In this document: piece by piece, positions 4,791 through 63,188 of the stretch
Layout: every line of letters starts with the position of its first letter
Numbering within the stretch: position 1 is the stretch's first letter
NCBI GenBank assembly: GCA_963772455.1
Contig: CAVYXJ010000005.1
Coordinates: forward strand, 83,817-147,816
Reading direction: 5' to 3'
Source of the DNA: Candidatus Bathyarchaeota archaeon
GTDB lineage: Archaea > Thermoproteota > Bathyarchaeia > Bathyarchaeales > Bathycorpusculaceae
Length of the DNA stretch: 64,000 nucleotides
Position numbers and translations under genes: made by a program
The notes under the pieces: model-generated
Databases searched by the model: none
What the model saw: only the letters and a program-made list of their open reading frames with translations
What the model was told of the DNA's origin: nothing

Positions 4791-5162
4791 TTAAGACTTC
4801 GATTCTGCTTCATCATCAAAGTAGCAGTCTTCAGTGAATCTAGGCGTACAAACGCAGTAGAAAACAAGGTCGGTATGGCCCGTGTTGGTTATTTTCTGCG
4901 ATGTCTCAGCAGGAATGACGATAACATCACCAACACTCACATTAGTTGATTCAAAGTCACTAAAGGTTACTTTGCCCTCTCCCGCCGTAATTATATAGAT
5001 TTCCTGGATTTTTTTTAGGTGATGTGCTTTAGTTGTAATGCCTGGCTTAACTGTTGCACGCGCTATTGAAACGTCTTTGTCGCTGAAATTTTCAGCAATG
5101 TAGCATCTTTCAGGTGTCAAATATTCATATGGTATGTTGGCTTTTACAATTTTTGGCAGCAA
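4791..5162 (-). CDS. Cupin domain protein
   Basis: PG...AHH...EIYIITAGEG and GDVIVIP cupin motifs. Confidence 0.85.
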   Translation of the reverse strand: MLPKIVKANIPYEYLTPERCYIAENFSDKDVSIARATVKPGITTKAHHLKKIQEIYIITAGEGKVTFSDFESTNVSVGDVIVIPAETSQKITNTGHTDLVFYCVCTPRFTEDCYFDDEAESKS

Positions 5163-8035: not shown

Positions 8036-8049
8036 GGAGAAAATAGCCA

Positions 8050-13118: not shown

Positions 13119-16100
13119 GTGGCGGTTATTACGCCGTCATCTTTGCGGATGAGTTTTCTTTCCCTGACCAATCTCTTAAGCACTTCTGAGAACACTGATT
13201 TGGCTGGTTCACCTAAATGATTAATTCCAAATACTTTTCCAGTTTCAGCAATCAATGAATCATCACTTATACCTAAAGAATATTGGGCAATCAAAATCAT
13301 AGCTGACTCAACTTCTTCAGGTGCAATGTACTCAGGTCTACGCTTGGATTCTGGGACACCCTGCATTGGAACACGAATCGATGTTACTTTAAGCCCAATT
13401 GGCCAAAGAAAGCTACCTTTGATAACTACTTTCTGTTCTCGAATGAGATTGTTTAAGGATTCTTTGACTGCATGAGCGATTTTTGGTGTCACTTGTTTTA
13501 TTCCCCATGCAGTTGCTAACCGCTCAACCGCGTAATCAAAGTGGACTGGCCCTTCATTTTGTATTAGATCAGAGAGAAGTTTGGTTTGGTTTTCACGATT
13601 TTCCGGGAAGTGAAACTCGTTTCTTTGTTTTGAGTCTATTGTAGCTTTGGCTGTGACTAATTTTATGTATGGATTGTAGGTGGCTTTTAGGGGATAGACT
13701 TTGTATGATATGCCAATTTTTTCTATCCCTGCAAAAGTGTTTTTTTGAATATCTGTTTTGGGAACAGAGTTTTCTTTTATGTCGATTATTGGTTTTTGAG
13801 CGTCATTGTCAATTTGATTTTTTTGCGCTTGTTCCAGAGTTTCTTTTAGTCGTCTGATTTCTGAGTCACGCCTGGCAACCCATGCAGGTGACCAAATACG
13901 ATGTATACGCCAACCCAGTTTCCTCAATACCTGATCACGAAGTCTATCGCGGTCTCGCGCGCTGCTGCTTGATTTGTAGGTTATTCCGTCGCATTCTACA
14001 CCAAGAAGGAAACAGCCTTCGTTTACTGGGTCCACTACACCCATATCAATTCGATAACCGCTGCAGCCTACCTCAGGAACAACTTGGTAACCCATCTTTT
14101 TAATTTCAGCTGCAACATCTTCATCTAGAGCTGAATCAAAAGTGCCCTCTTTAGCTTTATTTGATAAGGGCTCTGGTCCATGTTCGGCATAATCGAGATA
14201 ACCACGTAAAGTTTGCAGACCTAGTGCTTTGGCGTCTTTGTCTATGTCAGAAGATCTGATTGAAGTAATCAATACTACTTTTTCTCGAGCACGTGTAACC
14301 GCGACATTTAATCGCCTCTCACCTCCTGGCTTGTTTAATGGTCCAAAATTCATAGCCATTTGACCTTGCTGATCAAAGCCGTAGCCAACACTGAAAAATA
14401 TTACATCGCGCTCGTCTCCTTGCACGTTCTCTAAGTTCTTGACAAAGAAACCTTCCAATCGATCTTCTTTGAAAAAAGGCTCAAAAGCCGGTTCTTCTTT
14501 GAGTCTACTATCAATGGCTTCTGCAACGGCATCCATTTGAGCAATGCTAAAGGTAACTACACCAAGAGTTTTCTTTGGGAAGTTCTTGAAATGCTCAAAA
14601 ACTAGATCCGCAACTCTTTCAGCTTCTTTTTGGTTGTTTCGTTGACCTCCACGGTCATAGATTCCGTCTTGTACATAGAATAGTTTTACACCCAAATTGT
14701 CAGTTTGATTCACGGCAGCGGGGAATGTAATCATAGTGTCGTCATAGAAGCGATGATTTGAAAACGCTATTAGATCTTCATGCTTGCTTCGGTAATGCCA
14801 TCTTAATGTCTTAACTGGTAATCCAATGCCTAAACACTCATCAAGAATACTATCGAAAACTTCTACATCATCGTCACTGAGTTCGTCCCAATCCACATTA
14901 TCGATTAAATTCTTTTGGAAGAACGAAGTTGGTGGAAGTTGTTTATTGTCACCTGCAACTACGAGTGTTTTTCCACGGTATATGGCGCCGATTGCATCTT
15001 CGGGAACTAATTGCGAGGCTTCATCGAAGAGAACTAAATCAAACTTTGTATCGGGTGGCATGAACTGGCTAACGGAAATTGGGCTCATCAATAAGCATGG
15101 CTTTAGTTTTACGAGTAGATTTGGAATTTTTTGCATTAAAGTACGAATAGGCATTAACCGTCTCTTCTTCGCTGCTTCTTTTAGAAGGATGTTTGCCTCC
15201 GTGTCTGCTGCTTGGATTAGAATATCTTTAGGTTTTCTGCTATTAGCCGCTTCAATAACCATACTGGATGTAAGGTAAATGAGGTCTTGGTCAAGTTTGC
15301 GGAAGTCATCAATTAACTGTTCATGGTTCTCTCTTCGAAACCGACCTAGTGTTTGGTCTTCGTTGTAAAGGCTGTTTATCCATTCTTGATAAACGCTTTT
15401 TCGGAAAACGCTTCCTAAATCTGCCGCAGAAATTTTCTGTTCAATTAAGTGGTTAAAAAACAAGTCTAGACTTCGCAATGAGAAACGGTTTTTAGCATCT
15501 TTGAAATCGATCCAAACTTGAACATCATCGACACGCTCGCGCAATGACTGGACTCGTTCAATTATAACTTTGATATCTAAATCTCTCAGCAATTGGTTTT
15601 GATACTTAATTTCTTTTTCAAATCGTTTTTCAAAATCCGCTAGCACTTTCAGTGATGAATCTTTTCTTTGAATTAATTCCGTATTAGATGGAGCTGCGGT
15701 TGGTCCTCTAGCTGCAATGTCTGCGAAAGCTTGTGGCACGGGTATATCGGCAAATAATGTTTGCACATTTTTACTCCATTCAAGCACATCCACTATGCCT
15801 TGCCAGTTGGTTTGTAACTCTTGGAAACGGCTACCAAATTTTTCTTGAAGCTGGATTTTTTCGCCTATAATTTGTGCTTCTTTCTTTCTTATTTCTTCAG
15901 CATTTTTAAGATCATCGAGAAGCATTTTGTAGGTTTGAGGTTCACGTTTGCATGTTGTTAATGTCTGGCTTGTGAGATTATTTAATGGATTTAGTTGTTT
16001 TTCTGTTTCACTAGCCCACTCCTTAACAATCGTTATGGGAGTCTGAGATATTGAAACATCTGACTTAGGCATCTTTGACGGAATAAGTGATTCCAAATCT

Positions 16101-21281: not shown

Positions 21282-22253
21282 TTAAAGACCAAAGACATAG
21301 ATCCTAAAAATTAAAACAGGCACCACCACAATTAACCCAAACAGGACTGAAGTCACCGTCATAACTTGCAGAGCCTTGGAAATTTGCTCAGCTGAAATTC
21401 CGTGATCATCACCCAATTTATAACAACCTTGTTTTTCAAGTTGGATATTCAACGCTCCAGCCATGGCGGATATAGTATAGCCAGCATTCGGACTGGCAGT
21501 TTTATGTTTGTCACGTTGCAATATACGGAAGGATTCCCGCGAATCTTCCCGCAAAATAAACGCAGCAGCAACCATCAAATAGGCTGTCACGCGAGCCGGA
21601 ATGTAATTTGTTATTGTATCCATTTTTGCTGAGAACCAACCAATGTTCTTGAATTCAGCGTTCTTATAGCCAACCATTGAATCCAAAGTGTTAATCACGC
21701 GGTATGCAAAAGCGCCTGGAACCCCGAAGAGCGCATAAAAGAAGAACGGGGCAGTTATACCATCGGTTGTGCTTTCAGCAATTGATTCGACAGCTGCAGA
21801 AATAATCTGTCGTTCATTGAGACTGTTGGGGTCGCGTCTGACAATATAGGGCAACCATTTTCGTGCTTCAGTTAAATCGTTTTGTTTGAGTGCTTTCGCA
21901 ATGGGTTTAGTATATTGTCCCATGCCTCTTATGGCGAAAGTTGCTTTGAAGAGGATTGCACCAACTATTATATAGAATATTTCACCGTAGGGTAACGTTC
22001 TTAGCCAAAAAAGTAACAGAAATATTGGAAGAGCAACAACCAACATGATTGCTAGCGCCATTAAGACACCATTTGCTTTTTCAACGCTGGGATTTGGGTT
22101 TTTTACTTTTCTTTTGAGATACAAAATCATTTTGCCTATCCCAATGGTTGGATGAATCCTATCAGGATACTCCCCTAAGACCAAGTCAATCATAAACGCT
22201 AATATGAAAATCAAGATAGAATCAACAAACAACGAAAAATCAAGTGTAAACAT
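21282..22253 (-). CDS. cbiB: Adenosylcobinamide-phosphate synthase CbiB
   Basis: GEYP..HP, ESIAESTTDG, YRVINTLDSMVGY, NYIPAR and SPNAG; membrane protein. Confidence 0.92.
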   Translation of the reverse strand: MFTLDFSLFVDSILIFILAFMIDLVLGEYPDRIHPTIGIGKMILYLKRKVKNPNPSVEKANGVLMALAIMLVVALPIFLLLFWLRTLPYGEIFYIIVGAILFKATFAIRGMGQYTKPIAKALKQNDLTEARKWLPYIVRRDPNSLNERQIISAAVESIAESTTDGITAPFFFYALFGVPGAFAYRVINTLDSMVGYKNAEFKNIGWFSAKMDTITNYIPARVTAYLMVAAAFILREDSRESFRILQRDKHKTASPNAGYTISAMAGALNIQLEKQGCYKLGDDHGISAEQISKALQVMTVTSVLFGLIVVVPVLIFRIYVFGL

Positions 22254-22263
22254 AAGTCTCGAC

Positions 22264-23397
22264 TCAAACTGCCTTTACTGCCAGTTTAAGAGATGCAATC
22301 AACTGTTCATTTTCAGCGTGTGTTTTAACGGCGATTCGAACATAAAACTCATCAAGACCCCTAAACGAGGTGCAATCACGAATCAAAATCCCCTTCTGCA
22401 ACAGTTTACTTTTCAGTTCTGAAGCAGTTAAGCCTGACTTGTAAATATTGATGAAGAAAAAGTTAGCATCTGGACGAGAAAATTTTAACGAATCAAATTT
22501 ACTTAACTCAGAATTTAACCAGTCTTTTTCTTTATTAATGAGCTCACGCGTCACTCGAAGATGTTCTTCATCCTTTAAAGCAGCAACAGCAGCAGCCTGC
22601 GCTAAACAATTTACATTCCAAGGAATCTTTGAGCAAGAAAGAACATTTATCATTTCTTCATTGGCAATGCCGTAACCAACTCGAAGCCCAGTTAAACCAA
22701 AAATCTTTGTAAAAGAGCGCAAGATAAAGAGGTTAGGGTAGTTGCTAATTTTGTTAATCATAGTGAGAACTTTTTCGTTTTCAACAAATTCCAAAAAATC
22801 TTCATCTAAAAAAACCAAGATATCTTGCTCAAGAGCCAACTCAATTATTCTTGTAAGGGTTTCTTTGGGAATAAGCATGCTAGTTGGGTTGTTTGGGTTG
22901 CATAAAAAAATTATTTTAGCGCCAGTCATTTCAGTCTTGAAAGAGCCTGCATGAACATTAAGACCCTTGCCCAACTTGAGGAACTTGGGTATTTCACCAG
23001 TTTTACGAACAGCACTTTCATACTCACCAAAAGTTGGTGCTGGAATCAAAGCTATTTCCCCTTTTTTAAGGAAGCTTTCAGCAAACAAGTACATGAGTTC
23101 AGTTGAACCGTTCCCTATGACGACATTATTCTTATTAATGCTTCCAAAGTGACTAGAAATGACTTGTCTTAGTTCATTAGAGTTTGAATCAGGATATGCT
23201 GCAATTTGGCTGAAGGCTTTTTTTGCAGCCTCAAGAGCCTTTTTTGATGGACCTAACGGATTTACGCTTGAACTAAAATCTAAAATCTCATGGGGCTTAA
23301 GCCCACTTTCCTCTGAAGCACTTAAAACTTCTGCGCCGTGAACGCACGGCTTGAGATTTTTAACGTTGTCCCTAACTATGCTCTCTATAGGCTTCAT
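22264..23397 (-). CDS. cobD: L-threonine-O-3-phosphate decarboxylase CobD (HisC-like PLP enzyme)
   Basis: DFSSSVNPLGP, GNGSTE, CNPNNPT and RSFTKIFGLTGLRVGY; directly upstream of cbiB. Confidence 0.8.
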   Translation of the reverse strand: MKPIESIVRDNVKNLKPCVHGAEVLSASEESGLKPHEILDFSSSVNPLGPSKKALEAAKKAFSQIAAYPDSNSNELRQVISSHFGSINKNNVVIGNGSTELMYLFAESFLKKGEIALIPAPTFGEYESAVRKTGEIPKFLKLGKGLNVHAGSFKTEMTGAKIIFLCNPNNPTSMLIPKETLTRIIELALEQDILVFLDEDFLEFVENEKVLTMINKISNYPNLFILRSFTKIFGLTGLRVGYGIANEEMINVLSCSKIPWNVNCLAQAAAVAALKDEEHLRVTRELINKEKDWLNSELSKFDSLKFSRPDANFFFINIYKSGLTASELKSKLLQKGILIRDCTSFRGLDEFYVRIAVKTHAENEQLIASLKLAVKAV

Positions 23398-43035: not shown

Positions 43036-43758
43036 TTAAACTAAAGAATAGATAATAATCGCTATGCCAAAAATGATGCTTGCTGAACCTGTGAGAGCCT
43101 TAATTATTTTGTGCACTTTCTCCAAATTTGAAGCTGTATAAGCGATAACCGACCCAACTATGCATGCAATGCCCACCATTCCTAAGATTACGCCTACCCC
43201 AAAAAAGAAGATGAAGACTGTTCCTATCGTAAGTGAGTTAACTGTTGACAGTGTAACCAGCATTAAGGCTGCGCTGCCTCCGAGTCCTTGAATTGCGCCT
43301 GTGATTGCTGATTTGTGTAGATGCGTGTGAGAATGTTCGTGTTCATTGGTATCGTGTTTGTTGTTATGTTTGTGAGTGTGGGAATGCGGATGTGTATGTG
43401 AATGGCTTTGTTCATGTGCTGCTTGATGAATGCTGTTTCTTTCGGTGATTAATGGCCTAACTACAAGTACTCCTAAAATTATCAGCAGAACTCCAGCGGC
43501 GCAATCAAACAATTTTAGAACAGTTTGTGGTATTGCAACGCTAAATGTAAGCACCAACAACCCAATTGCTAATAGTACTACTGAATGGCCAATTCCCCAG
43601 ACTGTGGCTGAAGTGATGCATTTACGTAGACTTTTATTATTGCATACTAATGCGGATACTGCCACAACGTGATCTGGGTCTAATGAATGCCCCAAACCCA
43701 AGCCTAATCCCGTAAGTAGGATAAAGATTATCGACAGATCCACGCCAATGCATACCAA
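43036..43758 (-). CDS. UreH/NiCoT-like Ni/Co permease with His-rich loop
   Basis: GHSLDPDH, WGIGHS, HSHTHPHSHTHKH loop and about six TM helices. Confidence 0.8.
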   Translation of the reverse strand: MVCIGVDLSIIFILLTGLGLGLGHSLDPDHVVAVSALVCNNKSLRKCITSATVWGIGHSVVLLAIGLLVLTFSVAIPQTVLKLFDCAAGVLLIILGVLVVRPLITERNSIHQAAHEQSHSHTHPHSHTHKHNNKHDTNEHEHSHTHLHKSAITGAIQGLGGSAALMLVTLSTVNSLTIGTVFIFFFGVGVILGMVGIACIVGSVIAYTASNLEKVHKIIKALTGSASIIFGIAIIIYSLV

Positions 43759-43814: not shown

Positions 43815-44918
43815 TCATTTTTGTTTATTTGCAGTTTTAACGATAGCTTCCAAAACGCATTTTGTAAAAGGCCCTAATTGTGGCTGGTCTTCGGATTTTG
43901 ATTTATTTAAGGCAGATGTTAAAGTAGCATCGGAGGCACACTTCAATGTTGTTTTAACAATTTCTTCAAACAATATTGAGTCTACTGAATTGCCATTTTT
44001 TTCGGGAATTAATCCTTTTAATAAATCTTCGTCAAGCCTAAGAGTTGCAATTACAAGCCTTGCAATTTTGTCATCCAAGAGGATTAATTCAAACTGTTTT
44101 TCGAGTTGTTTGTACCTTGGGCTTTCCTTAGCTATTTTGCTGTCAAAAACCTGAGATATTATAGTTTCAAATGATAGGCGTCTATCTGCCAATCTTTCAA
44201 CAAGTGTTCTTTTTGAGGAAATGTTCTCTTGTTTAAAAATGGCTATTTTTACTCCCTCTCGAACACACTTTCCAATTAACTCACCAAGAATCGTGAATGT
44301 CCCAGCGTACTGTATTGACTCGCCTCTTTTGGTGCATCCAACTGCAACGCTATCTGTCAAGGTCCCAGTTGCTAGGTCTCCTGAAAAACGACTTCTGATG
44401 TCTAATTCTCTAAGGGCAACAGTTTTGGCTTCAGTTGCTGTTTTAATTACTTCAACCATGCAAGCCTCAGTTAAATTTCCATCAACTATCACTACAACAT
44501 TTATTGTCCCAATCTTTGGAAGTTGTCTACTCTTTGAAGCCGCGGGTTCACCAGCTGTTACAGCTACGGTGGCTCCCGCAGTCACAAAAACAGTTAAAGT
44601 AACGTCATCATATTTTTCAGTGAAGTATACCAAGTTTTTCATTTTGGCTGCAGTCATCAACCCGACCACTTTTTCGTTTGGAAGTTGCAGTTCTTGTGCA
44701 GCTTTAACTAAGAAGTCTTCAGGACCACTCCAATGCATGTCACTCTTGTTGCTTCCGCTGCCTTCTGGAACTTGAACGTTAATTATTCCATTTGCCTCAA
44801 CCAAGCCTCCATTCAAAAGGGCAGAACTGAGTATCTTCAAAGGAGTCTTAGACCAAATAACAAGGGTTTGATTCTTGACTTCGGCGTCAATGTTTTCGAT
44901 TTCAACGTTCAATTTCAT
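43815..44918 (-). CDS. cbiZ: Adenosylcobinamide amidohydrolase CbiZ with C-terminal extension
   Basis: LSSA, GLMTAA, VTAG, GTINV, TATEAK and ATGTLTD. Confidence 0.88.
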   Translation of the reverse strand: MKLNVEIENIDAEVKNQTLVIWSKTPLKILSSALLNGGLVEANGIINVQVPEGSGSNKSDMHWSGPEDFLVKAAQELQLPNEKVVGLMTAAKMKNLVYFTEKYDDVTLTVFVTAGATVAVTAGEPAASKSRQLPKIGTINVVVIVDGNLTEACMVEVIKTATEAKTVALRELDIRSRFSGDLATGTLTDSVAVGCTKRGESIQYAGTFTILGELIGKCVREGVKIAIFKQENISSKRTLVERLADRRLSFETIISQVFDSKIAKESPRYKQLEKQFELILLDDKIARLVIATLRLDEDLLKGLIPEKNGNSVDSILFEEIVKTTLKCASDATLTSALNKSKSEDQPQLGPFTKCVLEAIVKTANKQK

Positions 44919-45026: not shown

Positions 45027-45659
45027 CTAATCTATTAAGAGTAAGGCAAAAGTTTCAGGATTCTTGTTAAAAGGTAAAGTGAATTTTATGCCAGCTTTCT
45101 CAGCAGTCGCTTTAACGTTAACTCCGACGCCTTCTTGGGAATATCTCTTCATTTCCGGATGGATACAGATTCCTTTTTCCACATTGCATTTTTCACACAA
45201 CTGACAAGTCCCCGAAACTAAACCTACAGCAAGCAAATATCCTTCGTTTGCAGCTGCTTTCTCGAGTTTATGAACAGTCTCAAGTAATTTTTTCATCTCA
45301 GCTTTCCACCCCAACCAAAACTTATCGACTTTTTCCTTCATGTCTTCAGGAATAGAGTGGGCACCAGTTTTTGAAAGATATTTGATTAATTCTGAATCAC
45401 CCTCAACCTGTGTTCTAAATTTCATAAAGAGGGCATAGTGGTATTCGCTTACGATTTTTCGAAATTCATTTGGTGTTGGAGCGTGAGGGGGGCATGCTAA
45501 TGTTTTTCCATATTTTTCACAGCCAAGTTTGCATTTGAAAACAACACGGTCTTCGATGACAATTTTTTCGACTTGAATTATCTTCGCTTCTGCAGCACCT
45601 AAGTCCATTACCTGTTTTCTAAGAAAATCAAGCGATTTTATTTTGTCAGCTTTTTTCAT
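45027..45659 (-). CDS. DUF2284 family Cys-rich (predicted metal-binding) protein
   Basis: KCKLGCEKYG..LACPP; GTCQLCEKC...CIHP...SQEGVGVNV. Confidence 0.85.
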   Translation of the reverse strand: MKKADKIKSLDFLRKQVMDLGAAEAKIIQVEKIVIEDRVVFKCKLGCEKYGKTLACPPHAPTPNEFRKIVSEYHYALFMKFRTQVEGDSELIKYLSKTGAHSIPEDMKEKVDKFWLGWKAEMKKLLETVHKLEKAAANEGYLLAVGLVSGTCQLCEKCNVEKGICIHPEMKRYSQEGVGVNVKATAEKAGIKFTLPFNKNPETFALLLID

Positions 45660-46786
45660 TCTATTTCACGTTCAGGTTTTTTCAATTTTCTGCCTGATGT
45701 TTTGGGTTGGTAAAGGCATGCTGGGTCTTGGTTTAGGCTATCTTTGCTGTATATGTAGGCTCGTGCTCTGCAGCCACCGCAAATGATTTTGAATTCGCAG
45801 ATACCACATTTGCCTTTGAGGTTGTTGCGGTCTGCAAGTTTTTTCAGTTTTTCCGATTTGGGCATTCGATTCATAATTTGTTGAATGCTATCAGTTCTAA
45901 TGTCTCCAAATTCTAAGCCAAGTGGTGCACAGGCATAGGCTTTTCCATCTTCGAGAATTTCCAGCCATTCGTATTTCTTAAGGTTATCACACATACTACA
46001 TGTACTTCTTAGTTCACGCGAAGGCTCCTTGGTTTTCAGCAAACGGTTGTTGAACATTTCGTAGGGAACTATGAGGATTTTTTCTTGGACTTTCTTGCTA
46101 AGATCATAGATTTCGTTTAGTTGGTCTTCTCTTTGTTGTGGTGTTGGCTCTAGTGAACCGAGCAGCTTCAATTGATTTTCAACATCTATGGGTTGAGGAA
46201 TTAATGATGCTAGATGGAAACTTTTTGCGCCCAAATCAATTGCAAGTTGAACTAAAGCTGAAATTTGATTAGCTACAAATTTTGTGTTAATCACACTCAT
46301 GGCAAAAGGAATATCAAATTCCTTGCATAATTTGCAAGCGTCTATACTATCTTTGAATGCCCCTTCCCCGCGAAGTTTATCATCAGTTTCCTTTAACCCC
46401 GCGAAGCATATGATAGCCTTGCAATTCGCTGCGGCTAATTCTTTTGCGACTTGGTTATTGAAATGCCAACCTGTAACTTTCACATAAGGAGACATCTTCA
46501 ACTCAGCAACGTATTGAATGAGTTCTATGAAGTCCTTACGCATCAGCGGCTCGCCTGTCCAGCCAGCTCCAGAAATGAAAAGGTTATCTACTCCAAAATC
46601 CGCAGCTTTCTTTAGCATAACTTTTGCTTCCTCGGTTGTTAGTTCGTTGGAAAGGGGTTTTCCATCTCCAAGAGAAAAAGCGTGCTTAACAGGATAAGCC
46701 CGGGTGCAAGACCAAATGAAGTGGTCTAGTTTGTTGCCATGTTTTTCGGAACCGAAAAGTTGTTTCTTATTTTCTTTAATAGACAC
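45656..46786 (-). CDS. Radical SAM/SPASM-fold protein (NirJ/Ahb-like) lacking CxxxCxxC
   Basis: ELTTEEA, GEPLMRKD, DKLRG.GAF and SPASM KCGICEFKIICGGCRARAY...DPAC; the SAM-cluster cysteines are absent. Confidence 0.8.
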   Translation of the reverse strand: MSIKENKKQLFGSEKHGNKLDHFIWSCTRAYPVKHAFSLGDGKPLSNELTTEEAKVMLKKAADFGVDNLFISGAGWTGEPLMRKDFIELIQYVAELKMSPYVKVTGWHFNNQVAKELAAANCKAIICFAGLKETDDKLRGEGAFKDSIDACKLCKEFDIPFAMSVINTKFVANQISALVQLAIDLGAKSFHLASLIPQPIDVENQLKLLGSLEPTPQQREDQLNEIYDLSKKVQEKILIVPYEMFNNRLLKTKEPSRELRSTCSMCDNLKKYEWLEILEDGKAYACAPLGLEFGDIRTDSIQQIMNRMPKSEKLKKLADRNNLKGKCGICEFKIICGGCRARAYIYSKDSLNQDPACLYQPKTSGRKLKKPEREIE

Positions 46787-48147
46787 TAAACATCATCTTC
46801 GCCATCTGAGGTTTTTCTAATTGATTTGAGCTGGTTCTTCATGTGGCCTGGAATCTCAGATTGTGCGTGCTTGCGTAATTCAATCCTGTCATGGGTTGCA
46901 TTTACGAGCGTGGGTAATTCGGAAGGATGTTTGATGAAAATTGCTCCAGATTTCCTTAGTTCTGCCATAAAAGCAGTTGCTATTCCAGAGGTAAAATCTC
47001 GACTTTCCATTGGCACTTCATCGATAACATATGTGCGGATACCCCGTTTTACTGCCTCAAGTGCCGTTTCCAGATTAGAGAGATTTCCATAACCAAAGGG
47101 AACTGATGTCACCACTACTATAGCGGATTTAAATATCATTTCCGAGAGCGCCCTCTTTGATTCCTCGGATATAGGTGAGAAAGGTGCCTCACTTACTGTT
47201 GGAATTTTAAGAAGCTCAGCGGTTTCATAATCTGTGTCCAACATGTTGAGAACACCAGCAGTCACTTCATAGCCTTCATCGACTAAAGCTTTCATCACAA
47301 CGGTTCCTGTTCCGGCTCCCGCAATAATGTGAATAGCACAGTTTCGAGGTACAGAAGATTTCTGAGGGCTGAGAGGAATTACAAATAGAGAGTTTGTTAC
47401 AAGGCTTTTCTTTACAATCGCGTCAACGTGGAAAACAGCTTTAATATTCTCACTTGTTAGGACATTTTCTACAGCTCCAGCTGCAAATATTGTCGCTCCC
47501 TTAAGTAAGAGAATTGAGCTGCAATAACGTGCTGCCAAGTTTAAGTCGTGAATTACGGCTAAAACGATCAAGTGTTCTTCAATGCAAAGTTCCTTCACTA
47601 GATCCATGATTTCCAACTGATTAATCATGTCTAGATGAGTGAGTGGTTCATCGAGCAACAGAACTTTTGGCTCTTGTGCTAGGGCACGGGCGATTACGAC
47701 ACGTTGCTTTTCTCCACCGCTTAATTCGTTTATTGGGCGGTCAGCTAAATGCCAAGTGTTTGTTCGGTTCATAGCTTTCCTGACGATGGTTAAATCTGAC
47801 TCTGATTCCATTTGGAACCTTTTCATGTGGGGATTTCGCCCCATCAATACTATGTCTAACGCGCTAAAACTGAAACCTATGTTGCTTTCCTGTGGGACAA
47901 TTGCCATTCGTTTGGCAAGGTCCATGCTTTTAATGTCGTAAATATCGGTTTTATCGAGAATTATAGTTCCTTTGTAGGGCTTGAGAGTTCGACTGATGCT
48001 TTTTAGAAGCGTTGTCTTTCCTGAGCCGTTAGGTCCAATTATTCCAACGAAATCGCCTTCTTTAACTGTGAAGCTGACATTTTCCAAAATCTTTATTGAA
48101 CCATAGCGGCATTCGACTCCATCCACACTAAGTACTACCATGTCCAA
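46786..48147 (-). CDS. btuD: Cobalamin/Fe-complex ABC transporter ATPase with C-terminal extension
   Basis: GPNGSGKTT, LSGGE, LLLDEP and HDLN; about 190-aa C-terminal extension. Confidence 0.85.
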   Translation of the reverse strand: MDMVVLSVDGVECRYGSIKILENVSFTVKEGDFVGIIGPNGSGKTTLLKSISRTLKPYKGTIILDKTDIYDIKSMDLAKRMAIVPQESNIGFSFSALDIVLMGRNPHMKRFQMESESDLTIVRKAMNRTNTWHLADRPINELSGGEKQRVVIARALAQEPKVLLLDEPLTHLDMINQLEIMDLVKELCIEEHLIVLAVIHDLNLAARYCSSILLLKGATIFAAGAVENVLTSENIKAVFHVDAIVKKSLVTNSLFVIPLSPQKSSVPRNCAIHIIAGAGTGTVVMKALVDEGYEVTAGVLNMLDTDYETAELLKIPTVSEAPFSPISEESKRALSEMIFKSAIVVVTSVPFGYGNLSNLETALEAVKRGIRTYVIDEVPMESRDFTSGIATAFMAELRKSGAIFIKHPSELPTLVNATHDRIELRKHAQSEIPGHMKNQLKSIRKTSDGEDDV

Positions 48148-48157: not shown

Positions 48158-49240
48158 CTACAGTGAGTAACTTGTCTTCCTTTTTCTTAGCAAGTAGATA
48201 AAGAATGGGGTTCCTGCTAAAGCAGTTATAACTCCTACTGGTAATTCTGATGCCCCTGTAGCTACCCGAGCGACGGAATCGCATAGAATGAGGAATATGG
48301 CACCAACAATCGCTGATGTGGGCAATAGAATCCTGTGGTCAGGTCCAATTACCAGCCTTGTCATGTGGGGAATTATAAGACCAACGAATCCAATAATTCC
48401 GCTTATGGAAACTACAGCGCCTGTTATCAATGAGCCTATGAGGAGAAGTATTTGACGTACTCTTTCAGTGTTTACTCCTAAATGTTGAGCCGTGTCATCT
48501 CCCATGGATAACATATTGAGGTCTTTTGTAAAGAAATATGCAACAACTGTTCCTACTAAAACAAATGGAAAAACAATGTAAATATGAGTCCACGTAATGT
48601 TGGAGAATCCTCCAGCAATCCAAGCGACAATGCCTATCAAAGCTTTACCTGAACGTAACTCGAATACAGTTTGCAAAGCCAAAATAAAAATGTTAACAAC
48701 TATACCTGACAACAAAAGTGTGGTTATTGGCACTTTGTTTCCTACGCGTGACATAAAATACACTATAAAGACCGTTAAAACTGCACCTAAGAAAGCGACT
48801 ATTTGAAAAAGTCCAAGGCCAAAAAAATTAAGGATCAAAGAGCCGGCATACAAAGTAGCTAAAGTGTAGCCAAAAGAAGCTCCTGCTGAAGCGCCTAAAA
48901 GGTAAGAATCTGCCATTGGGTTTCTAAAAACACCTTGATACATAACGCCGGCGGCTGCCAATCCAGCACCAACTAACGCTCCTGCAAGTATACGCGGTAA
49001 TCGAATTTGGATGATAATTGCTTCGTTTACGTTAGAAATTGTTGATGAGTCTACATAGTTATTAAGGAAGGGAATTTGTTTGCCCAATATTGTAAGGATG
49101 TCTGAGAAGTTGATGGGTGCGAAGCCTATGTTTAAGCAGAGAATAACAACAACTACAAGTGTTACAATTAATAGTAATAAGATTAACTTCCATCTGGAAG
49201 ATCGTTTTGAATATTTTTCTTTTACTTTATCGGTAGTCAT
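48158..49240 (-). CDS. btuC: Cobalamin/Fe-complex ABC transporter permease (FecCD/BtuC)
   Basis: IRLPR, FRNPMAD, GDDTAQHLGV, IGFVGLIIPH and ELPVG. Confidence 0.88.
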   Translation of the reverse strand: MTTDKVKEKYSKRSSRWKLILLLLIVTLVVVVILCLNIGFAPINFSDILTILGKQIPFLNNYVDSSTISNVNEAIIIQIRLPRILAGALVGAGLAAAGVMYQGVFRNPMADSYLLGASAGASFGYTLATLYAGSLILNFFGLGLFQIVAFLGAVLTVFIVYFMSRVGNKVPITTLLLSGIVVNIFILALQTVFELRSGKALIGIVAWIAGGFSNITWTHIYIVFPFVLVGTVVAYFFTKDLNMLSMGDDTAQHLGVNTERVRQILLLIGSLITGAVVSISGIIGFVGLIIPHMTRLVIGPDHRILLPTSAIVGAIFLILCDSVARVATGASELPVGVITALAGTPFFIYLLRKRKTSYSL

Positions 49241-49268: not shown

Positions 49269-50234
49269 TTAAAAAAGGTCTGGGTAAAGTGCTTTGGCAG
49301 CTGTCTCTATTTGTTCCGCGATCCGTGGTCCTGCTTCAGCGAAGAGGTCTCCGTTTACGACGATTACGTTGTTGTTTTGAATTGCGCTAATTGAGCTCCA
49401 TCCAGGTCTTGCTTTAACTATGTCAACGCTTCCATAGAAGGGTGCTTCATCTGTTTGTGCCATGTTAGTGGGCAGTAATATTACGTCTGGGTTTTTCTGG
49501 ACTATTGTTTCTGAGCTAACGGTAGGATACTGTTGTGTTTCTGCTCCGAAGATGTTTTCTCCTCCAGCCTTAACAATTACGTCGTTTATGAATGAATTAT
49601 TGCCTGCAGACATTAGTGGAGGTGTCCAAACTTCATAGTACACTTTTGGTTTAGGTAAGTTTGCAGCTGCTATTTTGGCTTCAACGGTATCAATTCGGCT
49701 AGTTAGAGAATTCACAAGTGTAGTTGCGTCTTGGTCTGCTCCTGTTGCTTTGCCCACAATAGATATGTCTTTGAATACGCCGTTGACATCGTTGGGATTG
49801 AGCACTAATACTTTGTAACCTAAGTCTCTGAGTGTTACAACGTCTGGATCATTGATTGGTGTGGCTAGAATTAGGTCAGGATTTAGTGAGGCAATTGTTT
49901 CTTTGTTGGGTGTTGAGAAGCCTCCGATACTTGTCATGTTTCCAGCAGCAATCCAAGCGGCGAAGTCATAGGGGTAGTGGTCATAGTCGGTTACAGCAAC
50001 TACTCTTTCGCCTACACCTATGGCGAAGAGGATTTGTGTGTTACTTGGTGCGAGCGAAATAATTCTTTGTGGAACCGAAGCAAAATTGGTTTCATAACCT
50101 TCGTCATCAATTACAGAAAAGTTTTGGGGTCCTGTATTGTTTCCTGCGTTGTAATTGTTGAATATGAAAGCGCCAGAAATGATTATGACGATAATTATTA
50201 TTGCGGAGATATATATTGCATATTTTTTGTTCAT
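49269..50234 (-). CDS. btuF: Cobalamin-binding ABC substrate-binding protein
   Basis: N-terminal membrane anchor, PQRIISLAPSNTQIL, AGG.NIF and GPR; cluster includes cbiZ; start ATG 50234. Confidence 0.85.
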   Translation of the reverse strand: MNKKYAIYISAIIIIVIIISGAFIFNNYNAGNNTGPQNFSVIDDEGYETNFASVPQRIISLAPSNTQILFAIGVGERVVAVTDYDHYPYDFAAWIAAGNMTSIGGFSTPNKETIASLNPDLILATPINDPDVVTLRDLGYKVLVLNPNDVNGVFKDISIVGKATGADQDATTLVNSLTSRIDTVEAKIAAANLPKPKVYYEVWTPPLMSAGNNSFINDVIVKAGGENIFGAETQQYPTVSSETIVQKNPDVILLPTNMAQTDEAPFYGSVDIVKARPGWSSISAIQNNNVIVVNGDLFAEAGPRIAEQIETAAKALYPDLF

Positions 50235-50258
50235 AGTTTCCTTTGAACTCCTATTACC

Positions 50259-50273
50259 TGGATGGATTATCCA
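50259..50273. promoter_or_regulatory. Putative operator between the btuF TATA box and start
   Basis: TGGATG-GAT-TATCCA; minus-strand TTTATATA at 50280-50287. Confidence 0.55.
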
Positions 50274-50476
50274 ACACAGTATATAAAGTTTGACCAAATA
50301 CGACTAAACCACATATTATTTAAAAAAATGACTCCGATTTGAGAACAAATCAGCTGATAGATCACATTCAGTTATGAATAAATCAAAAATTATCTATCTG
50401 AACATAGCATTAAAAAATGAAATGCCTTTTTGACTTGTTGTAGTATTGGTACAGCCACTTAGGTTTAAGAACACAT

Positions 50477-56982: not shown

Positions 56983-57301
56983 AGCGGTGGACCACTGCGG
57001 TTTGACGCCCAGACTCCGTCTGGAAACCTCAAGCCCTACACTCTTACCCGCACCCCCTTGAGCGCATAGCGTCCAAACTTAGGTTGCTCTCTCCCGAGCC
57101 TAGCCGGGTTCGCCTGGTAGACAACGAAGTAACTTCCCTACGGAAGCCACCCATTGACCGCCAGCCCCAAAGGACGGATAGTCACAGGTTCGGAAATGAA
57201 ACTCCAAGCGGCCTTTGACGCCTCATCCGCAGATGTCAGCCCGTCATGTAGAGGATTTACGGTACAATGGACCCCTAACCCACCGCCTAAGATCCACCGC
57301 C
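56983..57301 (-). ncRNA. ffs: Archaeal signal recognition particle (SRP/7S) RNA
   Basis: GC-rich ~319 nt island. Terminal helix GGCGGUGGAUC/GGUCCACCGCU; helix 6 GGGUGGCUUCC-GUAG-GGAAGUUACUU (GNAR loop); helix 8 CUAGGCUC-GGGA-GAGAGCAAC; BRE/TATA GAAAGTTTTATAG about 23 nt upstream. Confidence 0.92.
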
Positions 57302-57360: not shown

Positions 57361-58177
57361 TTACTTCATTGCTTTTGTGGCAGTCTTAAGTTCTTGCGCA
57401 GCTGCTTTCAACTGTTTTAACATAGTAGATGTGTTTTGGCTGTTATTTTGAATAATGTTGATGAATGCAGATCCAACAATAGCTGCATCTGCTCCCGCTG
57501 CAATAACGCGTTCCACGTGTTCAGGTTTGGATATTCCAAATCCAACAGCAAGAGGAATTTTTCCAGCAGTATATGGCAAAACTCGTTTAATTAATTGAAC
57601 TGTCGAATCTTCAATTGTTGTTTTGACACCTGTAACTCCATAATGCGATACCAAATACAGAAAACCCATGCTGCAAAAGACTATTTTGCACAGGCGTTCG
57701 TTAGTGGTGGATGGCGCGGCTAAGAAAATTGTGTCTAAACCATTCGCTTCGGCAGCTTTCCTAAAGTCAGTTGCTTCCTCTATTGGCAAATCAGGAATTA
57801 TGAAACCCGTCAACTAGGTGCTCTTTAGCTTTGCTGAGAAATTTGTCAATGCCGATTCTGAAAACGGGGTTATAATATGTCATTATCAGAATGGGAATGT
57901 TATGTTTTTGTTTGATTTCTTTGGCGATTTCTATGACTTTCATTGGTGTTGTCTGGGCAGCTAAGGCTCTTACGCTTGCTGCTTGAATTGTAGGTCCATC
58001 GGCAATTGGATCAGAAAACGGCAATCCAAGCTCGAGAATTTCAACTCCACCAGTGATAAGTGCATCTGCAATTTGTGGAGTAAGTTCTGGGTTTGGGTCT
58101 CCTGCCATTATGTAACCAATGAGCACTCCGTTTCCTTGTTGCATTGCTTTGTGGAATACTTCTTGTATTAGATTCAT
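57361..58177 (-). pseudogene. trpA: Tryptophan synthase alpha, one +1 frameshift near 57803-57808 (possibly an assembly error)
   Basis: ELGLPFSDPIADGPTIQ, MTYYNP | IIPDLP, GVTG, VGFGIS, IVGSA. Confidence 0.85.
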
Positions 58178-59369
58178 ATTTTCGCCCCAATGTAGTCTGC
58201 AATCGTTTCTACATCTTTGTCTCCACGTCCAGACAGAGTGACAACGATTGATTGGTTTTTCTTCATTTTTGGAGCCAATTTCATAGCGTAGGCTACTGCA
58301 TGTGAAGATTCAAGGGCTGGTAGAATCCCTTCTTCTTTTGCTAAAATCAAGAATGCGTCTATTGATTCTTGGTCGGTTGCAGATGTGTAGGTTGCGCGAT
58401 TAGAGATTTTTAGAAAAGAATGTTCTGGTCCAACTCCTGGATAATCTAAGCCGGCTGAGATGCTGCTTGTGTTCTGGATTTGCCCATTTTCATCTTGAAG
58501 AACATAGGATAACATGCCGTGAAAGACTCCTTCTGCTCCAGCACCCAACGAGGCTGCATGTTTGCCTGACTCTATGCCTTTGCCGGCTGCTTCAACACCG
58601 TAGAGTGCCACTGAGGTGTCATCCTCAAATGGATAAAATGTGCCAATAGCATTGCTGCCACCGCCTACACAAGCTACTAATGCATCGGGTAATCTGCCTT
58701 CTTTTTTCTGGAATTGTGCTTTTATTTCGTTGCCAATTACACTTTGAAAATCCCGTACAATCATTGGGTAAGGATGGGGCCCACGACTGATCCTATCAAG
58801 TAATAGGTATCTTCAATGTTGGTAACCCAATCTCTGAAGGCTTCATTTATTGAGTCTTTAAGTGTTTTGGAGCCTGAATCAACGGGGTGTACTGTAGCGT
58901 TTAGTAGTTTCATTCTGAACACGTTAAGGCGTTGTCGTTCACAATCTTCAGTGCCCATGTAAATTTCAGCTTTCAAACCCAAAGCGGCGCATGCGATTGC
59001 TGTGGCAACACCATGCTGACCTGCTCCTGTTTCAGCGATTATTCGGGTTTTGCCCATTCTCTTGGCGAGTAGTGCCTGTCCGATTGTGTTGTTTATTTTA
59101 TGGGCTCCACCGTGAGCTAGGTCTTCTCGTTTAAGGTAGATTTTTGCTCCGCCTAATTTGTTTGTAAGATTTTGGGCAAAGTAAAGAGGGGTTGGTCTGC
59201 CCACAAACTCAGATAGATAATAATCCAATTCTTTTTTGAACTGTGTGTCTTTTTTTGCTTTTTCATATGCTTGTTCGAGTTGTCCTATAGCTGCCATTAG
59301 AACTTCTGGAACAAAGCGTCCTCCAAACTTGCCGTATTTGCCGTCAATTGGATAGTTGCTTAGTTTCAT
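58174..59369 (-). pseudogene. trpB: Tryptophan synthase beta, one -1 frameshift near 58776-58779 (possibly an assembly error)
   Basis: [27 protein letters not shown]|[17 protein letters not shown] and LSGRGDKD. Confidence 0.88.
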
Positions 59370-60142
59370 GCTTCTACAAACTCCCTTACTTTTTCTTCGA
59401 TGTTTTCTGTTAACATTATGCTTGAACCGATGAGGAAAGCTTTTGCGCCACATTCACGTAGAAATCGGAGGTCTTTTGGGTTCTTGATTCCGCTTTCACT
59501 TACGATTACTTTGCTGCAATTATTATTGTTTTTTAGGATTTCTTTGGTCGTGTTTAAATCGATTTTTAGGGTGCCAAGGTTTCTGTTGTTTATTCCGATG
59601 AGGTCTGCGTTTGTTTCTATTGCTGTGCGAAATTCTTTTTCTGTGTGTGTTTCAAGTAGAACCTCCAACCCTAACTTGTGAGCGGTCTCAATCATTTCGT
59701 TTAGATTTTTTTGGCCATATCCTCTATCAAAAACGGCTTGTATAAGTAGAATGGCGTTTGCTCCAATTTTTGAAGCTGCAAAGATTTGTTTTGGACTCAA
59801 AATAATATCTTTCATGAGGATTGGAAGGTTTACGGATTTTCTAGCTTGAAGTAGAGCGTCTAGAGATCCTTTGAATTGTGTTGGCTCTGTTAAGATTGAA
59901 AGAGCTGTGGAGCCTCCTTTTTCCATGTATTTGGCAATCAAGGCTGGATTAACATTTGTTCTAATAACGCCGGCAGAGGGTGATGCAGATTTGATTTCGG
60001 TTATTATTGGATTCACTTTGCTGTTTAAAATTGCTTTTTTCAAGCTGACCTGACAATCACCAAAATGGTGGGTTTTTTCATAATAGCCGCTTTCAATGGT
60101 TAATTGGGCTGCATGCGCTAATAAATCAAGGTAATCACTCAT
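59366..60142 (-). CDS. trpC: Indole-3-glycerol phosphate synthase
   Basis: [31 protein letters not shown] and LIGSS. Confidence 0.93.
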
Positions 60143-61193
60143 ATTTTGCTTCAAGCTCCTCAAGCTTTTCTAAACTTCCGTCTGACATTTTAATTAATTC
60201 TTTTAATTTGGTGTAGGCGGTTCCATTAGTAATTGATTTTCGAGCAAGTTCCATTCCTTCTGCAAAGTTGTCTGCTTTGCCTCCAACTATGATGCCTGCA
60301 GCGCTGTTAACCAGAACAATTTCAGCTTTTGCATCATCAATTGTTTTCCCGCTTAGAATTTTGAAGATTGTTTTAGCGCTTTGCTCTGTAGTAGATGATT
60401 GTAAATCGGTTATTTTTGCTGTTTTTATGCCGAAATTGCTGGGGACAAATTCTAATTTTGTAACGTTGCCCTTTTTTAAGTGTGCGATTATTGTTTTTCC
60501 AATTGTTGAAATCTCATCTAGTCCATCAATTCCATGAACAACCATGGCTTCAATGCACCCCAGCTTATTCAATGTAGAAGCCATTGGAACCACCAGTTTT
60601 GAGTCATAGACTCCTAGCAATTGAGCATTAGCATTTGCTGGATTTGATAGAGGCCCAAGGACGTTGAATATTGTACGGATACCAATTTCGCGTCTGGTTT
60701 CTGCTGCGTATTTCATTGCGGGATGGAAATTTGGAGCAAACATGAATCCAATCCCGATCTTTTCGATTAAGCTTTCAACTTCTTTTGGTTTCAAATTTAT
60801 GTTTAGACCTAGTTTTTCCAGTACTTCTGCGCTGCCGCTTTTGCTGGTGACTGCCCTGTTTCCATGTTTAGCTACTGATACTCCTGCACCTGCAATTACA
60901 AACGCTGCGGCTGTGCTGATGTTGAAGGTTTTTATTTTGTCGCCGCCTGTGCCGCAGGTGTCAATTAGCCGTCCTTTTACTGTGGGATGAATTGTGCAGC
61001 AATTGGCACGCATGACTAATGTGAATGCGATTAATTCTTCAACGCTTTCACCTTTCATTCTCAGGGCAGTTAAGAAAGCGGCGGTTTGGGCGTTTGTAGC
61101 TTTTCCCGACATGATTTCACACATGATTCCCTGTGATTGCTCTAAGGTCAAATCAGAACCTTCGACGAGCTTTTGAATTCCTTCTCGAATCAT
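60135..61193 (-). CDS. trpD: Anthranilate phosphoribosyltransferase
   Basis: DTCGTGGD, FNIST, KHGNRA, RTIFNVLGPLSNP and GLDEI. Confidence 0.95.
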   Translation of the reverse strand: MIREGIQKLVEGSDLTLEQSQGIMCEIMSGKATNAQTAAFLTALRMKGESVEELIAFTLVMRANCCTIHPTVKGRLIDTCGTGGDKIKTFNISTAAAFVIAGAGVSVAKHGNRAVTSKSGSAEVLEKLGLNINLKPKEVESLIEKIGIGFMFAPNFHPAMKYAAETRREIGIRTIFNVLGPLSNPANANAQLLGVYDSKLVVPMASTLNKLGCIEAMVVHGIDGLDEISTIGKTIIAHLKKGNVTKLEFVPSNFGIKTAKITDLQSSTTEQSAKTIFKILSGKTIDDAKAEIVLVNSAAGIIVGGKADNFAEGMELARKSITNGTAYTKLKELIKMSDGSLEKLEELEAKYE

Positions 61194-61775
61194 TGTTTTT
61201 CCTCCAAGAAGTTCTTGATGATTAGTTTTCCGTCTTCGCATAGAATAGATTCAGGATGGAATTGCACTCCATAAATTGGATATTTTACGTGACGTATGCC
61301 CATAATTTCGCCGTCCTCAACAGATTCAGCAGTAATTTGGAGACAGTCAGGGATGGATTCTCGTTCACCAGCAAGTGAATGGTATCGAGTTGCTTTTAAC
61401 GGGTTGCGAACACCTTTGAAGATTGCTTTTTGGTTGTGTTTTATGAGACAGGTTTTTCCATGCATGAGTTTTTTGGCGTGAACGATTTTGCCGCCATATG
61501 CATGAATAATGCCCTGATGTCCAGAGGCAAACACCCAAGGTTGGTATGGTTGGACTTAGTGTTTGTAGAATTGCTTTGCAGACGCCAAAGAATTTGTCAT
61601 CCTCAGGATTACCAGGTCCAGGTGATATGACGATGCGATCTGGCTTCATTTTAGCTGCCTCAATTAGGCTGATTTGGTCGTTTCGGTAAACCACGGTTTC
61701 TGCGCCTAGTTCACCTATATATTGGACAAGGTTGTAGACGAATGAATCATAGTTGTCTATAACTAAGACTTTCAT
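61190..61775 (-). pseudogene. trpG: Anthranilate synthase component II, one +1 frameshift near 61523-61527 (possibly an assembly error)
   Basis: IDNYDSF, SPGPG, GVCL|GHQ, RYHSL and QFHPES. Confidence 0.88.
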
Positions 61776-61777
61776 TT

Positions 61778-63188
61778 TTATTTGGCTCCTGCTGCATGTT
61801 CAAGCGCTTTGATGAGTGCTTTGGCTTTGTGGCTTGTTTCAAACCATTCTTTTTCAGGTATCGAGTCAGCGACTATGCCTGCGCCGACTTGAATGTATGC
61901 TTTGTTGCCTTCTGAGAATAATGTACGTATGGTTATGGCAAAATCAGAGTTGCCATTGCAGCTAAAATATCCCACTGCACCAGCATAGGCTGCCCCTCGA
62001 TGCGAGGGCTCGAGTTCCTCGATTATTTGCATGGCTCGAACTTTAGGTGCACCAGACACTGTGCCTGCGGGAAATACTGCTTTTAATGCATCAAAACTCT
62101 CTAAATCGTCTTTTAAGTCGCCAGAAACTTGGGAAACAATGTGCTGGACATGGCTGAATTGGTGTATTTGCATAAACTCAGGAACAGTTATGCTTCCACA
62201 TCGACTTATTTTGCCAATATCATTTCTTGCCAAATCTACCAGCATTACGTGTTCAGCTCTTTCTTTTTGGTCGTTTAATAATTCGTTTCCTAGCGCTGGT
62301 TTTCTTCTACGTTGGCTGTAACGGGTGCTGTTCCTGCAATTGGAAAAGTAATTACTTTTTGGTTGTCGGAACTCGGACTGAGCATTTCGGGGCTTGAACC
62401 AACGATTTGACGTTTATCTGATTTGTAGTAGAACATGTATGGTGAAGGGTTAATCTGGCGTAAGCTTTTGTAGAAGGTCAATAGACTGCCGGTGTATTGG
62501 AATTGGAAGCGTTTGGATAGAACAACTTGGAAAATGTCTCCTGAGGTGACGTAATTTTTGGCTTTCATGACTGATTTTTCAAAGTCTTTTTTTGATGTAT
62601 TGATTGAAGGGTGAGTGTATGTGAACTGTTCTTCGGTGGGAGCTGGTTGTTTGAGCAAGTCGGTTACTTCTGTGAGGCGGTTTTCGCCTCTAAAATAATA
62701 GTAAGCTTGTTGAGTTTTATGATCAAAGACAAATCCATCTTCAAAGATGCCCATTTCTGTATCGGGAAAACTTAGGTCGTCAGGTTTTTGGTTTGGGATT
62801 ATTTCGATGTATCGTATGGCGTCATATGATATGTATCCTAATGCTCCGCCGACAAAACGAAAATCTACCATGTCATTTCTGTAGGGCATTAGTTGTTCTT
62901 GAATAACTTGGAATGGGTCGTTGGTTTGTTGTTTTGTGGTTTGTCCTGTTTTGTTATCGGTTATGGTTACTAAGCCGTTTTTGGCGTTGATGTTTGTTTT
63001 GGGGTCAAACCCTAAGAATGAGTATTGGGCTAGTTTTTTGTGGTCCTTCTATTGATTCTAGAAGGTAGGTGGTTTTGTATTTTTGGTGAAGTTTGATGAA
63101 TATATCAAGGGGGTTGTTTGTGTAGTTGAATTTAACATAGTTTAGTGGGTTTACTTTTGTATGTGGTTTGCCAAAGGCGATTCCCCAT
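61778..63188 (-). pseudogene. trpE: Anthranilate synthase component I with several indels (near 63183, 63024-63029, 62366-62382, 62295-62300)
   Basis: Reassembled motifs LLESIEG...[66 protein letters not shown] and GAGIVADS. Confidence 0.88.

Follow-up and report, generated by a model that had tools for sequence, protein, structure and literature searches.

The DNA under study, a window of 64,000 nucleotides from contig CAVYXJ010000005.1 of a Candidatus Bathyarchaeota archaeon (assembly GCA_963772455.1), encodes a radical S-adenosylmethionine (SAM)/SPASM protein without the three cysteines of the CxxxCxxC motif (the triad). We found that the loss of this triad is a trait of a whole protein family under selection and not decay, and that the genes of this family lie next to genes for cobamide uptake and salvage, in several cases behind a cobalamin riboswitch. 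Some role in the handling of corrinoids is quite probable, while whatever goes past the gene context we infer. The following features of the protein are referred to below:

45656..46786, minus strand: triad-less radical SAM/SPASM protein of 376 aa, unbroken open reading frame (ORF), assigned by Pfam, NCBIfam, AlphaFold and fold matches
46673..46696, minus strand: former CxxxCxxC loop with Y31, H35, F37 (aromatic position) and S38, placed by profile and L-INS-i alignments
46547..46555, minus strand: G78-E79-P80, the retained part of the GGEP motif, placed by alignments
45716..46000, minus strand: SPASM domain with C263, C266, C286, C327, C330, C336, C339 and C357, placed by homologue alignment

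Pfam recognizes both domains of the protein (Radical_SAM, 1.3e-7; SPASM, 8.7e-5, 23.2 bits at a cut-off of 21.5). An HMMER profile alignment to SkfB sets Y31 (codon 46694-46696), H35 (46682-46684) and S38 (46673-46675) on the three triad cysteines and F37 on the aromatic position, and the same register was obtained from a MAFFT L-INS-i alignment with 70 triad-bearing relatives. Single residual cysteines at these places occur in 14 of 169 sequences (one at position 31, six at 35 and seven at 38), whereas two of the three are found in none of the 169, which were chosen by a loop pattern that leaves positions 31, 35 and 38 unconstrained. Against this register counts the pairwise BLASTP comparison with P0125, the nearest triad-bearing protein, which picked a gapped alternative with a two-residue deletion (H-A-F set on H-C-Y). 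This alternative was dropped after the SkfB profile, the L-INS-i alignment and the positions of the residual cysteines were considered. The register with Y31, H35 and S38 is the likely one, and, judged from the alignments, the triad is absent in either.

The initial annotation had described the substitution as in register, the ORF as full length with motif codons at 46673-46696, and an indel artefact as excluded. These claims stood: the frame runs from 46786 to 45656 without a break, both alignments place Y/H/S on the triad, and the identical loop is present in homologues at 52-92% identity. The eight SPASM cysteines it called intact are all present as well. Its motif has to be narrowed, as Y/H/S is correct for this protein while YxxxHxxS does not hold for the family, in which position 35 is variable (H102/Y43/F10/Q6/C6/A2, n=169); for this reason His35 was also rejected as a new metal ligand. 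Similarly, the reported change to GGEP, a four-residue insertion ahead of G78-E79-P80, is present here and marks only part of the family, while plain GGEP is kept in many members, bacterial-type ones included. The further claim that SAM is not cleaved is supported insofar as the canonical SAM-binding cluster cannot be built.

In an alignment of 121 sequences C263, C286, C327, C330, C336, C339 and C357 are invariant and C266 occurs in 113 of 116, while in the L-INS-i alignment C266 stands in 32 of the 41 family rows and is missing in P0125. The SPASM part also shows low nonsynonymous divergence (dN) between relatives. According to the cited passages of PMC10452713, the two auxiliary clusters of SPASM proteins are bound by seven to eight C-terminal cysteines that are conserved, and two fully ligated [4Fe-4S] auxiliary clusters are probably formed here. 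As far as the sequence tells, no conserved substitute set of cysteines that might rebuild the triad, a point raised by the initial annotation, was found in the family alignments. C27 (34/41) and C154 (40/41) also occur in the triad-bearing P0125, C122 (33/41) lies at a strand start in the AlphaFold model, and the remaining ones are C127 (10/41), C151 (1/41) and C201 (26/41, Asp in the window protein).

Parts of the SAM pocket are kept in the 41 rows, namely the aromatic position 37 (Y in 28, F in 13), G78, E/D79, P80 and R139-G140 (each 41/41); G106 is a kept part too. Others are lost: alanine stands in place of the SxDG aspartate in 33 rows of the 41, and PI has replaced the GR that follows beta-6. 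The SAM-contact roles of these residues (aromatic, GGE, ribose and beta-6 motifs) are presumed. In addition, Y101, K103, D135, S164, N167, Q198, W274 and E276 are near-invariant in the family and rare in canonical relatives, and the conserved polar and aromatic residues Y101, K103, D135, S164, Q198, W274 and E276 suggest a retained ligand pocket. Since most of the near-invariant residues are already found in P0125, this pocket would be older than the loss of the triad. The AlphaFold model (predicted local distance difference test 91.4) is a partial triosephosphate isomerase (TIM) barrel and matches SkfB (Z 26.0, root-mean-square deviation 3.0, 278 residues aligned), SuiB (25.8), anSME (24.7) and also PqqE, while the ESM Atlas returned generic radical SAM/SPASM clusters only.

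The triad-less condition is shared by a family. A protein search gave 480 matches, the best 120 of which (52-92% identity) were aligned with the query, and none of these 121 sequences carries CxxxCxxC within its first 120 residues. A quick maximum-likelihood tree with 98 rows unites the 35 triad-less ones in a single clade, with a Shimodaira-Hasegawa approximate likelihood ratio test (SH-aLRT) support of 99. Its sister is P0125 (SH-aLRT 99), from a metagenome-assembled genome (MAG) named Tectomicrobia, followed by a weakly joined branch of triad-bearing Bathyarchaeia paralogues (SH-aLRT 82). Because the triad-less rows form one clade with a triad-bearing sister, the triad was, most simply, lost once. 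The median ratio of nonsynonymous to synonymous substitution rates (dN/dS) is 0.053 for the gene (7 of 11 pairs, the four with saturated dS being left out), compared with 0.038 for btuD, 0.054 for rad50 and 0.113 for cbiZ, with saturated pairs likewise left out. The substituted loop is conserved too, with dN 0.02-0.11 at a proportion of synonymous differences (pS) of 0.41-0.92 in eight pairs. The questions attached to the initial annotation, whether close homologues lack the triad and whether selection is relaxed, are thereby answered: 0/121 carry it, the triad-less rows of the tree group in one clade, and selection is purifying. In databases the members are labelled as ordinary radical SAM proteins or as 'AdoMet-dependent heme synthase'.

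The second line of evidence is the gene context. Merging of near-identical copies reduced the 71 family loci to 64, of which 45 are flanked on one side by 2.5 kb or more. In 42 of the 45, btuF, btuC or btuD lies within 4 kb, adjacent in 39, and any cobamide-linked gene (DUF71 counted) lies within 4 kb in 44, the exception being L146 with 287 bases upstream. As a control, 66 of 69 loci of more distant radical SAM/SPASM proteins (27-34% identity; 19 placed in the tree, all triad-bearing) were considered, of which only three have btuF, btuC or btuD and seven any cobamide-linked gene. Recurring neighbours are cbiZ, cbiB, cobD-like, cbiP, cobS, cobT, cobY-like, cobN, DUF71 and cobA genes, which vary between loci, yet remain within the cobamide pathway. 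In L018 the only cobamide-linked neighbour is DUF71, part of which is connected with B12 salvage according to the cited passages of PMC3541065. The linkage is also present in a MAG named Nitrososphaerales (L015), in G561 (L124, with cobN), in divergent Bathyarchaeia (L016, L102) and in genomes of the Dehalococcoidales order (L020, L198, L199). Cobalamin riboswitches were found upstream of btuF and the triad-less gene in L151, L158 and L163 (3 of 19 loci scanned) and in L198 and L199 (2 of 2 scanned). All five riboswitch-bearing loci are of the bacterial type, and in L163 and L199 the unit seemingly consists of btuF and the triad-less gene alone, no further salvage gene following. Triad-less SPASM proteins as such are already known in databases; what is new is the cobamide-salvage-linked, riboswitch-controlled family. 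The btuFCD-cbiZ locus of Bathy-6 Bathyarchaeia has been published, with no mention of the triad-less gene in the cited passages (PMC11697101), and no publication on a cobamide-linked triad-less family was found among the top-ranked literature matches, with most subscription papers outside.

In the window the order is btuF-btuC-btuD, the triad-less gene, DUF2284, cbiZ and NicO, a probable operon. The btuD stop overlaps the start of the triad-less gene by one base, which in turn is overlapped by the DUF2284 gene by four bases (ATGA). The other members are:

49269..50297, minus strand: btuF-like substrate-binding protein (Pfam Peripla_BP_2; NCBIfam BtuF 96 bits, cut-off 234), its true start probably being the ATG at 50234
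48158..49240, minus strand: btuC-like permease (Pfam FecCD; best NCBIfam match vitamin B12 permease BtuC, 295 bits, cut-off 461)
46786..48147, minus strand: btuD-like ATPase (best NCBIfam match corrinoid ABC transporter ATPase, 341 bits, cut-off 537)
45027..45659, minus strand: DUF2284 Cys-rich predicted metal-binding protein (Pfam)
43815..44918, minus strand: cbiZ adenosylcobinamide amidohydrolase (Pfam CbiZ 5.2e-58)
43036..43758, minus strand: NicO-type Ni/Co transporter, with which the probable operon ends (Pfam NicO 2e-6, at the cut-off)

DUF2284 was rejected as an obligate partner, as it stands beside btu genes without the triad-less gene in L174, L176 and L187 and is absent near distant family members. 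An Rfam scan of the window returned no riboswitch and only the archaeal signal recognition particle RNA (56985-57299, minus strand). Elsewhere in the window, cbiB and a CobD-like aminotransferase gene lie at 21282-23397, 20 kb from the btu operon. In a trp operon (57361-62889), trpA, trpB and trpE are each split over two ORFs and trpG is matched over a short length; either the assembly is faulty close to the end of the contig or the operon is truly decaying. Further observations are an NrdR-like ATP-cone gene with a class III ribonucleotide reductase (RNR) and its activase (5466-8727), and a 1889-aa DUF4011/helicase/MTES_1575 nuclease/DUF3320 protein that is possibly defence-related (13115-18784).

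Triad-bearing Bathyarchaeia paralogues are found near corrinoid genes as well. Two of them, radical SAM/SPASM proteins in tandem, directly follow btuD in G040, G191 and G132 (L173:8506-10948, L188:8650-11180, L189:3863-6319), with DUF71 and two btuF-like genes upstream; they are possibly active corrinoid-modifying enzymes. In 16 genomes the distance between a paralogue and a cbiZ is 4-15 kb, these genomes having been chosen for carrying both on one contig, so that they form a selected set and not a rate. Because triad-bearing paralogues also lie near corrinoid genes, a corrinoid-related substrate may be ancestral. In three congeners (L184:4622-8138, L185:7642-11128, L190:4366-7954) the genes after a btu-like operon encode a NifH-NifD-like fusion of ~730 aa and a second protein like a nitrogenase component, possibly a tetrapyrrole reductase in the same slot. 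Another observation concerns a small activase-like radical SAM family (246 aa) with an intact triad and no SPASM domain (L198:4814-5551; L015:2527-3411 and 4246-5007; L124:9598-10416; L200-L205). It has 374 homologues and occurs in 23 of 121 genomes of the Dehalococcoidales order, with up to 11 matches in one; its six closest loci lie beside btuF, while the other 14 loci fetched do not.

With regard to its corrinoid metabolism, the genome (G000, 92% complete) has 15 B12-binding domains over the cut-off. Neither CobA- nor PduO-type adenosyltransferases were found in it or in its 24 congeners (25/25), irrespective of the triad-less gene, and regeneration of adenosylcobalamin (AdoCbl) is therefore not visible in this genome. 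A RACo-type reactivator and CobN were not found in it either, and G000, G001, G013 and G003 gave no match to the families of methylmalonyl-CoA (MM-CoA) mutase and class II RNR. The non-carrier G003 has the same gaps (CobA, PduO, RACo, MM-CoA mutase and class II RNR), while G040 has a match to the large chain of class I/II RNR, yet neither CobA nor PduO was found there. CobA is present in four of five distant carrier genomes and lies in the same operon in L198, for which reason a substitute for the corrinoid adenosyltransferase was rejected as the function. A corrinoid-rich region of the genome (G000:C10, ~200000-252000; L191, L192) contains a second cbiZ and cbiB together with a HemN/HutW-like gene and an RnfD/RnfC-like pair. 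Several genes for B12-binding radical SAM proteins lie there too, as do two triad-bearing paralogues, of which one is split into two ORFs.

Carriers are named Bathyarchaeia, Nitrososphaerales, Nezhaarchaeales, Dehalococcoidia and Omnitrophota, and the gene is patchy: 9 of 24 congeners and 10 of 400 genomes of the class have it. A draw of 400 genomes from the phylum gave one carrier outside the family, G561. In the Dehalococcoidales-order draw there were three carriers among 301 (2/300 besides the Dehalococcoidales-named genome), whereas in a class-wide draw around that genome none of 300 others carries the gene. Since congeners without it retain btuD and cbiZ, uptake and CbiZ salvage do not need the gene. 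Frameshifted copies occur in G010, G016, G021 and L019; the breaks in G010, G021 and L019, where neighbours are broken too, are as in error-prone assemblies, while the G016 copy, with whole-looking btu neighbours, may be truly inactivated.

Compared with known systems, the best NCBIfam matches of the window protein are AhbD (TIGR04545), NirJ2 and TIGR04053 with 144, 131 and 138 bits at cut-offs of 500, 500 and 395. Shared with these enzymes are the partial barrel, the SPASM domain with its CX2CX5CX2CX17C tail (cited passages of PMC10452713) and a tetrapyrrole-type context. In contrast, the window protein lacks CX3CX2C, and its neighbours are cobamide salvage and not heme genes; by these scores, far under the cut-offs, it is not a member of AhbD or NirJ. 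TIGR04347 (pseudo_SAM_Halo, pseudo-SAM/SPASM) is by its name likewise a triad-defective radical SAM fold, but the window protein reaches only 93 bits there (cut-off 525), less than the triad-bearing P0125 (132 bits). Because triad-bearing relatives outscore it, the triad loss looks independent of TIGR04347. TIGR04150 (pseudo-rSAM), which we take to be a radical SAM fold with a defective triad, was not among the best 25 of the 35 NCBIfam families matched, and neither a maturase-precursor pair nor a peptide-precursor context was seen in the mapped loci. Sister in the tree (SH-aLRT 99) is the group of P0125 and P0284-P0291 (MAGs named Tectomicrobia and Nitrospinae, 38% identity; accessions OGW16863.1 and MBI2877318.1 belong to it), which shares Y101, K103, S164, Q198, W274, E276 and the lost SxDG aspartate with the triad-less family. 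It differs by keeping CxxxCxxC in all nine full-length members and by AGVEP in place of GGEP. The Pfam, NCBIfam and fold searches of the window protein gave no match to corrin reductases or proteins that remove the upper ligand, with which PduS also belongs, and the likeness to CobR, CblC and BtuM (cited passages of PMC8123684) is one of proposed job only, i.e. cobalt reduction or decyanation/dealkylation.

The initial annotation had proposed a tetrapyrrole-binding or electron-transfer protein. This fits, and the btu/cbiZ gene context and the cobalamin riboswitches point to a corrinoid as the tetrapyrrole in question. Its other suggestion, that imported AdoCbl is used in place of SAM, is conjectural. 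Our tentative preference, held at somewhat less than even confidence, is an Fe-S protein of the cytoplasm that binds corrinoids and, with no cleavage of SAM, either reduces the imported ones or removes their upper ligand. It would be an accessory cobamide-salvage protein derived from a radical SAM/SPASM enzyme, with the SAM-cleaving cluster lost and the barrel pocket and two auxiliary Fe-S sites kept. In the cytoplasm it would bind cobinamide or cobamide released by BtuCD and hold two [4Fe-4S] clusters. These might pass low-potential electrons to the corrin cobalt and reduce Co(III)/Co(II), and on reduction the upper ligand (CN, OH, methyl or adenosyl) might be released; these are the steps we are least sure of. 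The stripped ring could then enter CbiZ/CbiB remodelling, adenosylation or the loading of B12-dependent enzymes. Such an action would resemble that of a corrin reductase, or the removal of ligands by proteins of the CblC/BtuM type, but with a scaffold unrelated to theirs. An imported corrinoid has to be reduced and re-liganded, parts of which are done elsewhere by CobR, adenosyltransferases, CblC and BtuM (cited passages of PMC8123684), and the auxiliary clusters of AhbD, which binds an iron tetrapyrrole, were proposed to transfer electrons (cited passages of PMC10452713). A reductase or ligand remover seems to fit best because the protein is soluble, has a conserved pocket and probably two clusters, and is encoded with a transporter. 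Several points weigh against it. Auxiliary clusters can be structural, and removal of AuxI destabilised AhbD (same passages of PMC10452713). Most family loci come from related Bathyarchaeia, so that the counts of linkage are not independent, and the link of the triad-less clade to the corrinoid-associated Bathyarchaeia paralogues has an SH-aLRT of 82 only. The gene is dispensable (9 of 24 congeners versus 21 for btuD and all 24 for cbiZ), and G011 has only a 56-residue remnant; there the first 56 codons remain between btuD and DUF2284 (L187:7667-7833), in a MAG that is 58% complete with many breaks. The non-carriers G003 and G040 are also without a RACo match, i.e. this gap is not specific to carriers, and the RnfC/RnfD-like pair of the corrinoid-rich region could act as the reductase.

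The same synteny and riboswitches also support a non-redox carrier, buffer or sensor that hands corrinoids to CbiZ or client enzymes and whose auxiliary clusters are structural. A dispensable, patchy gene and the minimal unit of btuF and triad-less gene (L163, L199) speak for it, and HemW, a radical SAM fold that binds a tetrapyrrole and is named a heme chaperone in NCBIfam, gives a precedent, although it is HemN-like, keeps its active cluster and binds heme in a C-terminal domain (cited passages of PMC13495026). However, seven invariant cysteines with an eighth (C266) and the low dN of the SPASM part exceed the evident needs of a carrier, and the invariant polar pocket residues look potentially catalytic, which leaves this role doubtful. 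It might also be speculated that the cobalt took the place of the lost cluster, in that bound cob(I)amide, generated with the help of the auxiliary clusters, attacks SAM within the former pocket to give methylcobamide, or the adenosyl group of AdoCbl or adenosylcobinamide (AdoCbi) sits in the SAM pocket as substrate or radical source. The kept pocket parts (aromatic 37, G78, E/D79, P80, R139-G140) and the wealth of B12-binding radical SAM genes in the genome agree with this, while the lost SxDG aspartate and the change of GR to PI do not, and the distribution of CobA makes an adenosyltransferase role unlikely. Moreover, SAM is chelated by the iron of the radical SAM cluster, and that iron is gone here. 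We regard this alternative as unlikely. A fuller form, in which the corrinoid occupies the old cluster site and has its cobalt reduced by the SPASM clusters, with adenosyl or SAM in the former SAM pocket, such that the Co-C bond of adenosyl-corrinoids is cleaved or Co(I) is methylated, is rated a little higher and remains rather doubtful.

A quite improbable role is that of a non-catalytic subunit lending its pocket and auxiliary clusters to a triad-bearing partner. The small triad-bearing, SPASM-less gene follows in three distant lineages (L015, L124/L150, L198), the tandem paralogues after btuD (G040, G191, G132) could be read likewise, and in the TrnC/TrnD complex the activity of one partner only is essential (cited passages of PMC12093266). 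Yet in this genome we found no orthologue of the small gene, in the Dehalococcoidales order it is far commoner than the triad-less family (23 of 121 genomes versus 3 of 301), and three of four distant carrier genomes have a single profile match at E<=1e-40 and so no close paralogue. The frameshifted copies and the remnant might point to a decaying pseudogene or a sequencing artefact, but with a dN/dS of ~0.05, a conserved loop and a family common to archaea and bacteria the chance of this is next to nil, and it is refuted for the family and for this copy. To roles beyond all of these we give a small chance.

The family points to the step right after cobamide uptake in B12-dependent anaerobes such as Bathyarchaeia and Dehalococcoidia. 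The triad-less protein is a small soluble candidate for reducing or stripping corrinoids where no CobA, PduO or RACo was found, and with auxiliary clusters alone it would allow the function of SPASM clusters to be studied without a SAM cluster, the triad-bearing sister group and the triad-less family forming a natural before/after pair. If the corrinoid did replace the cluster in the fuller sense, we would have a new kind of enzyme for the editing of upper ligands in prokaryotes, one that links radical SAM with B12 chemistry to this day, and the 'before' state would be represented by the sister group (38% identity).

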